Source: an uncultured Candidatus Obscuribacterales bacterium
GTDB taxonomy: Bacteria > Cyanobacteriota > Vampirovibrionia > Obscuribacterales > Obscuribacteraceae
Reading direction: 5' to 3'
DNA length: 42,190 bases
Assembly (NCBI GenBank): GCA_964546815.1
Contig: CAZJLR010000003.1
Span: 1-42,190 of the forward strand
Shown: one piece after another, positions 16,881-20,349 of the stretch
Position numbering within the stretch: position 1 is the stretch's first letter
Layout of the letters: the number at the start of each line of letters is the position of its first letter
Translations under genes and position numbers: made by a program
Notes under the pieces: generated by a model
Databases searched by the model: none
Told to the model about the DNA's origin: nothing
The model's input: the letters and a program-made list of their open reading frames with translations, nothing else

Positions 16881-18884
16881 ATGCCGACAGAACCAAACCA
16901 TAAAGCCACTGAACTAGTTAAATATCAAACCGGTTGGCAAAAGATATTACTTTGCTTGCTCTGGCTTGCCTCTCCATACTGGCTGCTGGGAGGAATTGCA
17001 CTTCTCATTTTCATGACTTGCGATCCTGATAGTAATTTATATTTTCAAAGCTCTGAAATTTTGTTTATTACGATGTTAGTGCCAGCGGTCTGTACCATTT
17101 TGCTTTATCGACACCACCTTGCGGTAGATTCTAATGGAATAAGGTTCCCATTATATCTATCGCCTTTTATCGGGTTTAGACGAAAAATAAAATGGTCTGA
17201 AATAGACAAGATTGGAATTGAGTACGAAGACCAGGGAATACCTGAGCTCGGAAAAATAATTTTAGTCCTTAATGACAGGCAAGTGACTATAAATCTGCAT
17301 TGCCTCGAGGAGCCTAAGCGAGCGCGACTCTTGCATGCAATAGAGATTAATAGTTCTCAGGTTGAGAAAGCGAAAGAATTCAAGACAACTCAACAGTTAT
17401 TGACTGGAGAGCACCGTTTATCAGGAAAGCTCGCAACCACTGAAGGCCAACTTTTAGAAGACAAACAACTTTCACTTACCTATTCAACTCCGGCGCGCAT
17501 TGTTGCCCTTTGGACAACGCTCTTGCTTTTCCCGCTTTGGGGAGTTGCTGGTCTGCTCGGAACTTTAGCTTTGCCATTTGTGATTGTTCTGCTGAAACTG
17601 ATTCAATTCCCGCTGGTGCTACTTGCACCAATCATACTAATTATAGGTATAGTAGCCACTGCTTGCTTGTTCGACACCACGCTGACCGTAGGCGAAAATG
17701 GCATCAGCTTTCCTTTATTTATGGCACCATTTTTGCGCTTTCAGAGAGAACGCATTTGGAGTGAGATCAATCGCATCAGATACATTGCAAAAGGAAATGC
17801 TCTAGAACATGGAGTATTGGATTTCTATTTTAAATCGGGAATGCATATTCCTCTTTCATTGAAGGCACTCAAGCAGGGCGATCTTGAGAAGTTATTGCTG
17901 GCAATAAACATATGGGGACAGCGCATTGAACAAGACCCCGAGATTAAAGCACTGCAAGAGACTCTCAGCAACAAAAAGCTAGGTCACGAAACTGGGACGT
18001 ACACCAAGCTATGGGAAGAAGAAATGAACCGTCGTTTTTCTTCAACAAGCTTCGTACCGTTACAGGCTGGAAAACTGTTGCGCTCAGGTCATCTTAAGAT
18101 TGTGAAACAACTTGCATTTGGCGGACTATCTGCAATTTACCTGACTCAAAAAGACCAAACCGACTTGCTTGTGTTGAAAGAATTCGTAGTGCCCGAACTA
18201 AACCAACAACTAAAATCCAAAGCATGCGAGATGTTTGAAAGAGAAGCAGCCCTGCTAATGAAGTTATCACACCCACGCCTTGCGCGAATACACGATCACT
18301 TCGTCGAAGACGGAAGAACCTATCTACTATTAGATTACATTCCAGGCACTGACCTGAGACAGATAGTTTTGCAAAAGGGCGCCCTTTCCGAAGACGTAGT
18401 TGTCGAATGGGCAAAACAACTTTGCGAGGTTCTCGTTTACTTGCATAAACAAGACCCGCCTGTTGTTCATCGCGACTTGACTCCAGACAACATCTTACTT
18501 ACAGCAAGCGAACAAATCGCACTTATTGATTTTGGCGCCGCAAATGAATTTGTGGGAACTGCCACAGGCACACTTGTTGGCAAACAAAGCTTTATCGCAC
18601 CCGAACAATTCAGAGGAGAAACTACTCTGCAAAGCGATATTTATTCACTTGGCGCAACATTGTTTTATTTCTTAACCGGAGAAGAGCCCCAGTCTTTATC
18701 ACAGTCGATTCCAAAAGCCATAGTGCCCGAAATCAGCGACTATATAAGCCAATTGGTAGCAGACTGCACCGCATATGAAGCAAGCGAACGCATACAATCA
18801 GTTGAAGAAGTTCTAGAACGTCTGAACGGGTACAAAGCAGGGACGCTTGCTATCAAAGAAACTAGTTATGAGCACCAAAAATAA
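16881..18884 (+). CDS. Membrane-anchored protein-kinase-like protein. The N-terminal half has hydrophobic helix pairs, each followed by a roughly 90-aa PH-like (bPH/YdbT-like) module. The C-terminal half is a Hanks-type kinase domain with an atypical catalytic loop.
   Basis: Kinase motifs: G-loop LAFGGLSAIY; VAIK-equivalent LLVLKEF; HRD loop VVHRDLTPDNILL (Thr in place of the catalytic-loop Lys); DFG (LIDFGAA); APE (FIAPEQF). Duplicated N-terminal modules: DSNGIRFPLYLSPFIGFRRKIKWSEIDKIGIE..., and GENGISFPLFMAPFLRFQRERIWSEINRIRYI... Confidence 0.85.
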   Translation: MPTEPNHKATELVKYQTGWQKILLCLLWLASPYWLLGGIALLIFMTCDPDSNLYFQSSEILFITMLVPAVCTILLYRHHLAVDSNGIRFPLYLSPFIGFRRKIKWSEIDKIGIEYEDQGIPELGKIILVLNDRQVTINLHCLEEPKRARLLHAIEINSSQVEKAKEFKTTQQLLTGEHRLSGKLATTEGQLLEDKQLSLTYSTPARIVALWTTLLLFPLWGVAGLLGTLALPFVIVLLKLIQFPLVLLAPIILIIGIVATACLFDTTLTVGENGISFPLFMAPFLRFQRERIWSEINRIRYIAKGNALEHGVLDFYFKSGMHIPLSLKALKQGDLEKLLLAINIWGQRIEQDPEIKALQETLSNKKLGHETGTYTKLWEEEMNRRFSSTSFVPLQAGKLLRSGHLKIVKQLAFGGLSAIYLTQKDQTDLLVLKEFVVPELNQQLKSKACEMFEREAALLMKLSHPRLARIHDHFVEDGRTYLLLDYIPGTDLRQIVLQKGALSEDVVVEWAKQLCEVLVYLHKQDPPVVHRDLTPDNILLTASEQIALIDFGAANEFVGTATGTLVGKQSFIAPEQFRGETTLQSDIYSLGATLFYFLTGEEPQSLSQSIPKAIVPEISDYISQLVADCTAYEASERIQSVEEVLERLNGYKAGTLAIKETSYEHQK

Positions 18885-20349
18885 TCTCAAATTGGCAAAA
18901 CGCGAAGAAACCTATTTGGAGTGCGCTCCAATCGGGAAATTTTCGCGTCTGGTTCACCAATTTATGATAAAGAAAAAACTGCCTGTAGCGTTCAGCGCCT
19001 GGGGAATCTGTTCAATTCCAGTAGCAGGTGGATTGATAGCGTCATACGCTCAACCAATCTTGCTAGCAGCAAATGAAACACATCTCGATTTAATGGCGGC
19101 TGGACTGGCTCTCCCCCTTCTGCTACCGTTATTTGTTTTGCTGCGAAAACCAACGCATATTAGAATCACAAGCGAAGGTATTTCATATACCTGGCACTAT
19201 ACGATTAGAATTAATAGCAAACTACTTCCCTGGGAAGATGTTGAGACAATCAGCCTAATTCAACCGAAAAACACCAGCCGCGCTCAAAGCCGCACTTTGT
19301 CGTTCAAAGGTGCCGGGCAAAGCGTAGATTTAAAGGTAGACGAAGTTACAGACCCCCTGAAACTACCTTCACTTTACCAGGCAATTATTACGCATGCACC
19401 ACAGGTTCCCCGAGACGCCGAGATACAATCAATACTCGGTGCAGACAAGTCTAGCGCTTCGTACACCGAATTGTGGCTTAAAGCACTCACAGCTCCCCCA
19501 GAGAGAAGTCGATTGGAACCACTTTCTACCGGCACAAGCTTGCAAGATGGCAAGTATATTGTGCTAGATAAAATTGGATCGGGCGGACAAGGAGTAGCCT
19601 ACACTGCCACTACCGGCAATGGCAGTGAGAAAAATACAGTTGTGCTGAAAGAGTACGTACTACCGCTGGGAGTCAGCCACGCAAACAAAGCTGAATCACT
19701 CGAAAAGTTCCAAATGGAAGCCCAGATACTGGGGGAATTAGACCATCCGCAAATTGTAAGACTGCTGGACTTTTTCTTCGAAGACCACAGAGGCTATATG
19801 GTCTTAGAATATGTCCAGGGACGCAATTTGCAATCTCTCTGCCACTCAGAGGGAGCATTGAGCGAAAACAAGGTTATTGAACTGGCAAAACAAATGTCCA
19901 ATATTCTCGATTATTTGCACAGTCGCGCCCCCGCCATCATTCACAGAGACTTTACGCCAGACAATTTGATCTTAACCGCTGATGGTACACTCAAATTGAT
20001 AGACTTCAATGTTGCCCAACAGCAAAAACTAAGTGCGACAGCCACTGTTGTAGGAAAGCATTCATACATCGCGCCAGACCAGTTTAGAGGTCAGGCTACA
20101 CCTCAAAGCGATATTTATTCGATGGGGGCGAGCATCGCATACTTACTTACAGCAACTGAGCCAAAACCAATTTCATCGAGTCATCCCAGAGAAAAAAATC
20201 GGCAAGTTAGCACTGAAATGGATGCAATTGTCGCTAAATGCACGGCTGTTGATCCCTCTCGCCGATTTACCAGTGCAAAAGAATTCAGGCAGGCAATAGA
20301 GCTCTTAAGCGGTTCTGTAACAGAAAACGTCAGCGCACTGGAACCGTAA
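18868..20349 (+). CDS. Paralogous membrane-anchored kinase-like protein, with one PH-like module plus a kinase-like domain. It overlaps the 3' end of the previous gene.
   Basis: G-loop IGSGGQGVAY; VVLKEY; HRDFTPDNLIL; DFN in place of DFG (LIDFNVAQQ); IAPDQF. An ORF-track alternative start at 18847 overlaps more. The N-terminal TM helices are followed by ITSEGISYTWHYTIRINSKLLPWEDVETISL, which is the PH-like module. Confidence 0.85.
   Translation: MSTKNNLKLAKREETYLECAPIGKFSRLVHQFMIKKKLPVAFSAWGICSIPVAGGLIASYAQPILLAANETHLDLMAAGLALPLLLPLFVLLRKPTHIRITSEGISYTWHYTIRINSKLLPWEDVETISLIQPKNTSRAQSRTLSFKGAGQSVDLKVDEVTDPLKLPSLYQAIITHAPQVPRDAEIQSILGADKSSASYTELWLKALTAPPERSRLEPLSTGTSLQDGKYIVLDKIGSGGQGVAYTATTGNGSEKNTVVLKEYVLPLGVSHANKAESLEKFQMEAQILGELDHPQIVRLLDFFFEDHRGYMVLEYVQGRNLQSLCHSEGALSENKVIELAKQMSNILDYLHSRAPAIIHRDFTPDNLILTADGTLKLIDFNVAQQQKLSATATVVGKHSYIAPDQFRGQATPQSDIYSMGASIAYLLTATEPKPISSSHPREKNRQVSTEMDAIVAKCTAVDPSRRFTSAKEFRQAIELLSGSVTENVSALEP

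Follow-up and report, generated by a model that had tools for sequence, protein, structure and literature searches.

Paired membrane kinases of an uncultured Obscuribacterales bacterium with a coupled catalytic-loop and P+1-loop substitution and a possibly relocated catalytic lysine

The window, i.e. the whole stretch of 42,190 nucleotides (nt) that was analysed (contig CAZJLR010000003.1 of assembly GCA_964546815.1, from an uncultured Candidatus Obscuribacterales bacterium), carries two adjacent genes at positions 16881–20349 that encode putative membrane kinases, referred to as open reading frames (ORFs) 1 and 2. Both genes were intact and had the same orientation, and their products were paralogues, with 35% identity across 369 residues (BLASTP, E = 2e-69). 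A first-pass annotation of the DNA, made from the letters alone, had described two paralogous membrane kinases of one architecture, and this description was borne out by the BLASTP result, the Pkinase matches and the presence of transmembrane (TM) and PH-like modules in both proteins. The two genes and their junction are as follows.

16881–18884, + strand: ORF1, the 'type A' kinase, 667 amino acids (aa), with two successive units of TM hairpin plus PH-like domain and a C-terminal Hanks-type kinase domain (ORF list; Pkinase 125 bits)
18868–20349, + strand: ORF2, the 'type B' kinase, 493 aa from ATG 18868, with one unit of TM hairpin plus PH-like domain and a kinase domain with DFN (ORF list; Pkinase 144 bits)
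18868–18884, + strand: overlap of the ORF1 stop and the ORF2 start, 17 nt (38 nt with TTG 18847; Met1 alignment)

Two start candidates were found for ORF2, TTG 18847 and ATG 18868, and the ATG is the likelier one because it is aligned with Met1 in at least 90% of the homologues. The gene overlap of 17–38 nt given earlier agrees with these candidates at both ends of its range, the ATG resulting in 17 nt and the TTG in 38 nt. Immediately upstream, a perfect 7-bp hairpin (AUGACGG-GAGA-CCGUCAU, 16865–16882, + strand) spans a Shine-Dalgarno-like GGGAGA and the first two bases of the ORF1 AUG. Its folding energy was −11 to −12.3 kcal/mol (z = −2.2 versus shuffles), and it could be a translational control element or a product of chance. 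Around the type A/type B pair (hereafter the A/B pair), a promoter scan returned promoter-like sites at chance level (5 versus 6.9 ± 2.3 expected), and a terminator scan returned 11 terminator-like sites, somewhat above the expected 6.5 ± 2.7.

The N-terminal parts of both proteins were divided into modules by hydropathy and AlphaFold2 modelling. The predicted local distance difference test score (pLDDT) was 88.9 for residues 1–400 of ORF1 and 85 for residues 1–226 of ORF2.

16932–17108, + strand: ORF1 TM hairpin 1, residues 18–76 (hydropathy; AlphaFold2 helices 18–47 and 53–76)
17115–17351, + strand: ORF1 PH-like domain 1, residues 79–157 (AlphaFold2 strands 79–138 and helix 144–157, pLDDT >90)
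17490–17672, + strand: ORF1 TM hairpin 2, residues 204–264 (hydropathy; AlphaFold2 helices 204–237, kinked, and 240–264)
17679–17915, + strand: ORF1 PH-like domain 2, residues 267–345, with P278 and W293 invariant in the family and G274 kept in at least 90% (AlphaFold2; alignment)
18000–18035, + strand: ORF1 linker helix YTKLWEEEM..., residues 374–385, with W378 invariant, just before the kinase domain (alignment; AlphaFold2 helix 374–385)
18985–19143, + strand: ORF2 TM hairpin, residues 40–92 (hydropathy; AlphaFold2)
19156–19395, + strand: ORF2 PH-like domain, residues 97–176
19462–19488, + strand: ORF2 linker motif YTELWLKAL, with W203 and L207 inside (alignment)

Each module was predicted to consist of a short beta-strand, a TM hairpin and a six- or seven-strand beta-sandwich with a helix cap. 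The two modules of ORF1 are homologous to each other (internal repeat, E = 2e-15), and this repeat, hydropathy and AlphaFold2 support the earlier count of two modules in ORF1 and one in ORF2. The consensus that had been proposed for the modules, G(I/S)xFPLxxxPFxxFxRxxIxWSEIxxI, is an approximate match to both modules of ORF1 and only a loose one to that of ORF2. The TM helices of ORF1 are arranged as 2+2 and their outer loops span 4–9 residues; as the number of TM helices is even, all soluble parts should lie on the same side of the membrane. Both kinase domains are preceded by the linker helix YT[EK]LW... with its invariant Trp and Pro, and P211 and R213 of ORF2, just downstream of YTELWLKAL, are invariant in family B too. 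The kinase domain was C-terminal throughout both families and most members had a single module. Some type B proteins of 730–850 aa (among P0141–P0229) had 4–8 predicted TM segments before the kinase, so the type B membrane part is variable; one type B protein, P0219, is named by JGI as having a YqhA-like membrane domain.

The modules had previously been compared to bPH/YdbT-like PH domains. With respect to fold and layout this comparison held, as the module models show the PH superfold (a beta-sandwich with a C-terminal helix cap), and the solved bacterial PH domains 3B77 and 3DCX were among the Foldseek matches, none of which had an E-value <0.01. At the level of sequence it did not: none of the Pfam bPH families scored above threshold, bPH_7 reaching 13.6 bits for ORF2 (cutoff 25) and bPH_2 giving no match, and sub-threshold bPH_7 matches occurred in 5 of 68 family members (best E = 0.004). 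The modules are thus bPH-like in modelled fold and architecture, and their membership of a bPH sequence family is not established. YdbS (2 TM + 1 PH) and YdbT (6 TM + 3 PH), the DdE/DdF system, are encoded by adjacent genes and are both needed together (PMC8657885). They share with the A/B pair the repeated unit of two TM helices plus PH, the combination of a one-module and a multi-module protein from adjacent co-oriented genes and the PH-like fold. They differ in having no kinase domain, in their link to bacteriocin export or resistance and in the Pfam bPH comparison given above, where the A/B proteins lacked a significant match.

The kinase domains were delimited with Pfam.

18093–18845, + strand: ORF1 kinase domain, residues ~405–655 (PF00069 over residues 408–639; nearest solved structures StkP, Stk1 and PknB)
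19555–20307, + strand: ORF2 kinase domain, residues ~230–480 (PF00069)

Judged by their sequences, both ORFs are Hanks-type (eukaryotic-like) protein kinases. Pkinase (PF00069) matched over ~235 residues with 125 bits for ORF1 and 143.9 bits for ORF2 (cutoff 31.7), and APH (PF01636) reached 33.7 and 26.3 bits, respectively, with a best stretch of ~27–50 residues around the catalytic loop. NCBIfam returned partial matches to many Hanks-kinase equivalogs, none of them above cutoff, and its Bud32 models scored 34–36 bits against cutoffs of at least 125. The best sequence matches in the PDB were PknB, StkP and Stk1 (E ~1e-25 to 1e-32), and no family member was among the solved structures.

Conservation was counted per position, numbered as in PKA, in an alignment of 363 kinase domains (97 type A, 121 type B, 119 from a lineage of photosynthetic cyanobacteria described below and 26 canonical). 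The catalytic triad (the beta3 Lys with the alphaC Glu, the HRD Asp and the DFG Asp) and Asn171 were present in both ORFs and kept in 95–97 of 97 type A and in all 121 type B domains. In the C-lobe, E208, D220 (alphaF) and R280 (alphaH–I) were kept in at least 95 of 97 type A domains; in type B, D220 and R280 were found in 121/121, and position 208 was Glu in 108 and Asp in 13, ORF2 itself having APD. A Thr occupied the PKA Thr197 position of an RD-type activation loop in 95/97 type A, 120/121 type B and 113/119 photosynthetic domains. The Gly-rich loop was canonical in ORF2 and type B (GxGxxG, as GSGGQG), whereas ORF1 and type A had A-x-G-x-x-S with the central Gly alone kept. All motifs that had been listed as retained (Gly-rich loop, beta3 Lys, alphaC Glu, HRD and APE/APD) were therefore recovered except for the Gly-rich loop, which is degenerate in ORF1. 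The resemblance of the catalytic loop to the Brenner motif of APH-like enzymes was abandoned, since the H-x-D-x4-N spacing is common to all eukaryotic-type kinases. The APH/Brenner-type class was ruled out by the HMM (hidden Markov model) scores, which favour Pkinase, and by the intact activation loop, AP(E/D), D220 and R280.

The active-site motifs of the two kinases are as follows.

18468–18491, + strand: ORF1 catalytic loop HRDLTPDN, with Thr534 (18480–18482, ACT) at the canonical Lys (PKA Lys168; alignment to StkP HRDLKPQN)
18528–18536, + strand: ORF1 DFG motif, with Ala at DFG+1 (alignment)
18558–18605, + strand: ORF1 activation segment and P+1 loop TATGTLVGKQSFIAPE, with Lys568 (18582–18584) at the canonical Thr/Ser (PKA Thr201; alignment to StkP 'mlgSvhylspe')
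19942–19965, + strand: ORF2 catalytic loop HRDFTPDN, with Thr363 (19954–19956) at the canonical Lys (alignment)
20002–20010, + strand: ORF2 DFN motif, with Asp379 kept, Asn381 (20008–20010, AAT) at the DFG Gly and Val at DFG+1 (DFN in 119/120 homologues)
20032–20079, + strand: ORF2 activation segment and P+1 loop SATATVVGKHSYIAPD, with Lys397 (20056–20058) at the canonical Thr/Ser (alignment)

The HMMER alignment to StkP placed Thr534 opposite the loop Lys and Lys568 opposite the P+1 Ser. Two homologue sets were collected: 96 type A proteins with at least 335 bits to the ORF1 query, below which scores fell sharply to ~145 bits (generic kinases), and 120 type B proteins with at least 362 bits to the ORF2 query. 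Thr or Ser stood at the loop-Lys position in 96/96 type A proteins, all of which had DFG, and Thr in 120/120 type B proteins, with DFN in 119 and DFT in one. The Thr in both kinases and the DFN in ORF2, which had been noticed before, are thus conserved rather than sporadic, and they define the two families. A sequencing or strain artefact was ruled out by their invariance across hundreds of homologues; they are neither chance nor error, because they are invariant across the 96 and 120 homologues and because Gly to Asn takes two nucleotide changes.

The loss of the loop Lys is accompanied by a reciprocal change, the replacement of the P+1 Thr/Ser by Lys, and both this change and its spread across the phylum were missed by the first-pass annotation. 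In the alignment, position 168 was Thr in 91 and Ser in four type A domains, and position 201 was Lys in 95; in type B, Thr168 and Lys201 were each present in all 121 domains. The 26 canonical domains, which include the two other kinases of the window, had Lys at position 168 in 23 cases and Thr (18) or Ser (6) at position 201. The P+1 loop of the A and B families reads VGK(Q/H)S(F/Y)IAP(E/D), compared with the canonical G-(T/S)-x-x-(Y/F)-x-(A/S)-P-E.

Of ~530 kinase domains compared, those that had lost the loop Lys were, with one exception, also those that had gained a P+1 Lys. Among the generic matches only P0100 (HRDISPDN) and P0110 (HRDVTPSN) lacked the loop Lys, and these were also the sole two with a P+1 Lys. 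An exhaustive HMMER search of the P0110 neighbourhood found 162 domains with the loop Lys, none of which had a P+1 Lys, and five domains without it, four of which had one (Fisher p = 1.6e-7). Inside an otherwise canonical clade, the P+1 Lys has been gained by P0110 and, in the multi-kinase protein P0371, by two domains. Positions 168 and 201 are therefore coupled, repeatedly and in unrelated backgrounds.

P0100 has at least 120 relatives in photosynthetic cyanobacteria (P0241–P0360), including Nostoc, Leptolyngbya, Microcoleus, Planktothrix, Trichormus, Arthrospira and Gloeomargarita. Their motifs are HRD(I/V)(S/A/T)P(D/E)N and (T/S)VGKxGYxPxEQ. In all 119 aligned domains (of 120 matches) position 168 was Ser (89), Ala (27) or Thr (3), and the P+1 GK with Lys201 was present. 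This lineage resembles the A and B families in the lost loop Lys, the gained P+1 Lys, the acidic residue at position 170 and a 'VLKEF' after the beta3 Lys, and it is somewhat closer to them than other kinases are (~110 versus 76–86 median bits). Unlike A and B, its members have an N-terminal kinase domain followed by a TM segment, have no PH module and keep DFG, and no A/B pairing was seen. From the names, we guess that the lineage is possibly one of the Cyan families or the 'YMGK' family of the 2025 bacterial Ser/Thr kinase (STK) Atlas. The part of the Atlas consulted describes three cyanobacterial families, a 'YMGK' family and CCM1 as the only family with a TM segment N-terminal to the kinase; its main text, in that part, does not discuss the loop Lys or positions 168 and 201. 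CCM1, compared by its description in the same part, is compatible with the A and B families in architecture and taxon. The window contains two more Hanks kinases, one with HRDIKPGN, DFG, GS and a C-terminal TPR_12 (23673–25769, + strand) and one with HRDLKPAN, DFG and GT (36725–39328, − strand). As the motifs of these two are fully canonical, both active-site layouts occur in one genome.

In PKA the contact between Lys168 and Thr201 has been described as essential for catalysis (bioRxiv 10.1101/2023.09.12.557419). A Lys or Arg is found at catalytic-loop position 168 in all eukaryotic protein kinases and is treated as essential for protein phosphorylation (PMC4702295). In a 2007 survey of cyanobacterial kinases the subdomain VIb Lys was 86.7% conserved, according to the passages retrieved, which contain no comment on the P+1 loop (PMC2176072). 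Neither 'K168' nor 'T201' occurs in the searchable text of Kannan et al. (2007), a 2025 review of cyanobacterial phosphorylation is silent on positions 168 and 201, and a full-text literature search for motif strings of the HRDLTPDN, HRDFTPDN and HRDISPDN type found no paper. Public databases list A and B members as generic Ser/Thr kinases or as 'Bud32' (JGI auto-annotation). As far as searched, the active-site rearrangement and the obligate A/B pairing are undescribed; the kinase fold itself is ordinary.

Gene pairing was counted in 20 non-redundant loci with both flanks readable. In 19 of these an A (DFG) and a B (DFN) gene were adjacent on the same strand, abutting or overlapping and mostly in the order A→B; one clade had the order B→A with a 3-nt gap. 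The pairing was strictly heterotypic, A with B. The functional coupling of the two genes, which had been proposed from their overlap, is strongly supported by this adjacency. The two families are sisters, with a median A–B score of 208 bits and 42% identity versus ~105 bits to other kinases. The 19 adjacent loci comprise 20 A/B pairs, as one locus holds two: on a single Melainabacteria contig (L024:5431-12886) two complete A→B pairs stand in tandem with a 199-aa ORF between them. These tandem pairs had equal A–A (0.48) and B–B (0.47) distances; the pair was duplicated as a unit.

According to the source names and all 17 genome loci, the pair belongs to metagenome-assembled genomes (MAGs) of Melainabacteria/Obscuribacterales, with one MAG labelled Drouetiella. 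This MAG (L020, contig DATNPZ010000010.1) carries a typical A→B pair under the label 'Drouetiella sp.', a photosynthetic cyanobacterial genus, all others being Melainabacteria; the pair may extend to true cyanobacteria, or else the MAG is mislabelled. The genes flanking the pair differed from genome to genome, and neither a PP2C nor an FHA gene was found near it among the scanned ORFs of at least 150 aa.

We propose that ORF1 and ORF2 are obligate partners in a conserved, lineage-specific membrane complex that serves signalling in Melainabacteria (Obscuribacterales and relatives) and consists of two kinases whose catalytic lysine has been relocated, a reading that we consider evenly poised. 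The kinase side of the membrane would be the cytoplasm, as a kinase needs ATP, and the PH modules, not an extracellular domain, would detect the signal, either within the membrane or on its inner face. The P+1 Lys may supply the positive charge at the gamma-phosphate and the catalytic Asp that is normally the role of Lys168. In PKA the Thr201 hydroxyl is within hydrogen-bonding distance of the Lys168 amine, so that a Lys from position 201 could plausibly reach the same spot once residue 168 is small. On this view both proteins would be functional kinases in which the catalytic lysine has changed place. A and B may form a hetero-oligomer via their YdbS/YdbT-like TM-PH modules, their kinase domains or both, and may be activated by trans-phosphorylation of the conserved Thr-rich activation loop (T-x-T-G-T). 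Type B would still bind nucleotide and is probably active or conditionally active; this is proposed because every catalytic residue and the canonical Gly-rich loop are kept, and its DFN would limit flipping of the DFG motif without abolishing activity. The catalytic competence, the active-site geometry and the heteromer are inferences.

In its widest form the proposal is more tentative and falls somewhat short of an even balance. It holds that the catalytic-loop Lys, seen as universal among eukaryotic-like protein kinases, has been functionally relocated to the P+1 loop throughout a Cyanobacteriota kinase lineage (photosynthetic cyanobacteria and Melainabacteria) and independently in scattered kinases elsewhere, which would give Hanks-type kinases a second viable active-site layout. 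In Melainabacteria the lineage would further have evolved into a membrane kinase that is an obligate heteromer of A(DFG) and B(DFN) on YdbS/YdbT-like TM-PH modules, with a DFN subunit that is conformationally locked but nucleotide-competent.

Several points weigh against these proposals. One domain of P0365 (HRDLTPNN, DLG, 'PGV') has neither the loop Lys nor a P+1 Lys and is the sole exception seen to the coupling. It is from known contacts in PKA that the P+1 Lys is predicted to extend to the gamma-phosphate site, and an A–B heteromer is proposed from gene linkage only. The A and B distance matrices of the 20 pairs were strongly correlated (r = 0.968; Mantel 0/5000), a correlation that is expected from shared phylogeny alone and therefore speaks for co-inheritance and is no proof of contact. 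Asp/Glu170 is near-invariant in the three large lineages with the swap and adjoins Thr201 in PKA, so the new Lys could pair with residue 170. Lastly, the plant RLCK-VIII kinases MAZ and CARK7, which naturally have DFN, are inactive in vitro, and replacing the Asn with Gly did not rescue them.

The plant kinases bear on the rival that survives best, in which type A is the sole catalyst and type B, catalytically dead, acts as an allosteric partner or a scaffold, its activation segment being locked by DFN, similar to the HER3, STRAD and KSR-type partnerships. This rival would account for the invariance of each motif within its family (DFN in type B, DFG in type A), as well as for the strictly heterotypic pairing. 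MAZ and CARK7 resemble type B in that their DFN is natural, is conserved within the clade and lies in a kinase domain that is complete in other respects; the RLCK-VIII group, with DFN or DFD, is however eukaryotic and soluble and has the canonical catalytic-loop Lys. Asn and Asp are the best mimics of the Gly backbone angles, and the DFD kinases MNK1/2 are active, which counts against a dead type B. In type B, K72, E91, H/R/D166, N171, D184, F185, D220 and R280 were each found in 121/121 domains next to the intact GxGxxG; the degenerate Gly-rich loop belongs to type A, and type B evolves no faster than type A, the mean pairwise distances of the two being equal (0.366 versus 0.36). The earlier statement that ORF2 has DFN instead of the Mg-binding DFG is correct for the Gly, which is replaced by Asn, but the metal-binding Asp is retained. 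The consulted part of the bacterial STK Atlas calls a kinase a pseudokinase if any of three residues is missing, namely the VAIK Lys, the HRD Asp or the DFG Asp. Since all three are present in 121/121 domains, type B is not a pseudokinase by this sequence definition and the term does not suit ORF2. Altogether we consider a dead type B rather unlikely.

A second rival does without relocation. The kinases would work without a catalytic-loop Lys, like Rio, Bud32 and small-molecule kinases, and the P+1 Lys would serve specificity or loop stability, for example through a salt bridge to an Asp/Glu170 that fills the P-2 pocket. Rio and Bud32 have Ser or Thr at the catalytic-loop Lys position (HGDLSEYN, HGDLTTSN) and, unlike A and B, are without an activation segment, an APE motif and a substrate-binding C-lobe. 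Position 170 was acidic in 95/97 type A, 121/121 type B and 119/119 photosynthetic domains versus 9/26 canonical ones, Glu170 and Thr201 of PKA contact the same substrate Arg, and many members are labelled 'Bud32' by JGI, all of which would suit this rival, as does the general absence of the loop Lys from eukaryotic-like small-molecule kinases (PMC4702295). The independent swap cases speak against it: P0110 (Ser at position 170) and the two P0371 domains (Asn and His) have the P+1 Lys without an acidic residue at 170, which argues against a simple pairing of Lys201 with Asp170 as the driver. Furthermore, Lys occurred at both 168 and 201 in 0 of ~185 domains and was absent from both in one case, a pattern that fits one required charge better than an unrelated change in specificity. 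This rival therefore appears clearly improbable to us. Phosphorylation of lipids or other small molecules at the inner membrane face, which the missing loop Lys (typical of small-molecule kinases), the weak secondary HMM matches of both ORFs to APH, ABC1 and Kdo-kinase models and the membrane-adjoining PH fold might suggest, is very improbable given the far stronger Pkinase HMM match, the intact APE, alphaF Asp, alphaH–I Arg and RD-type activation loop with its Thr at the Thr197 position, and nearest relatives that are bona fide protein kinases.

Compared with known systems, the A/B pair shares with PknB, StkP and Stk1 the fold and catalytic core, the RD-type character with a Thr-rich activation loop and the membrane anchor. 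PknB, StkP and Stk1 have HRDxKPxN with a GT/GS P+1 loop, an N-terminal kinase, one TM helix and extracellular PASTA sensors, whereas in the A/B pair Lys and Thr have changed places, the kinase domain is at the C-terminus, the genes form a fixed pair, the anchor is made of TM hairpins whose PH-like domains lie on the side of the kinase, and there is no external domain. For the proposed relocation, WNK kinases are a precedent, as their beta3 Lys has moved to the Gly-rich loop and an essential active-site Lys is thus supplied by another element. The WNK case involves another lysine (beta3, contacting the ATP alpha/beta-phosphates) and another donor element, and its activity is experimentally established, whereas that of A and B is predicted. 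In Tyr kinases (HRDLAARN or HRDLRAAN, with Pro in the P+1 loop) positions 168, 170 and 201 change together and redefine the active-site and acceptor pocket; there the charge is shifted to Arg170, two residues further along the loop, and Pro takes position 201, while in A and B the charge goes to position 201 itself.

If the relocation is real, a large lineage that lacks Lys168 but always has a Lys at its P+1 contact partner would be a natural experiment on transition-state stabilisation, as WNK is for the beta3 Lys. The Lys/Thr swap-back and the Asn to Gly change in DFN are clean mutagenesis targets, and the coupled swap together with the conserved pairing of DFG and DFN would be unexpected to specialists on kinases and can be tested directly. 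Motif-based annotation rules would flag these kinases as atypical or Bud32-like. The A/B pair also offers an entry point to signalling in Melainabacteria, a sister group of cyanobacteria that is uncultured and does not photosynthesise, and to what bacterial PH domains attached to TM hairpins sense.

Other features of the window are as follows.

20330–22666, − strand: gene for a protein of 778 aa that ends in a cysteine protease domain of the calpain type (PF00648, 33 bits versus a cutoff of 23.8)
22949–23342, − strand: tmRNA gene (Rfam 138.5 bits), located between the calpain-like gene and the kinase gene that follows; the tag peptide given by ARAGORN is ANNVVQLRPAMRLAA
40028–40100, − strand: tRNA-Gln (anticodon TTG)

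The calpain-like gene is convergent with ORF2, and the 3' ends of the two genes overlap by 20 nt. It had been described as an EF-hand/calpain protease; the calpain-type domain was recovered, but the EF-hand match, like a XopAW-like one, remained below threshold. The gene was not conserved with the kinase pair in other genomes. A functional link of the pair to its downstream calpain-like or its upstream TPR and cytochrome c neighbours was ruled out, as these were found only in contigs of the same organism and not in the closest relatives (L017, L023). In nine loci (L007, L009, L011, L012, L014, L015, L021, L022 and L024) a TPR_12-type repeat protein is encoded convergently ~1–2 kb downstream of the pair. 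It resembles the TPR part of the window kinase at 23673–25769 and may reflect real synteny in one clade or mere repeat-to-repeat similarity. Elsewhere, the window encodes an eRF1-like 'baeRF family 3' protein (3348–4391, + strand), three tandem universal-stress-protein genes (4789–6810, − strand) and a 1073-aa VIT-domain protein (9796–13017, + strand).

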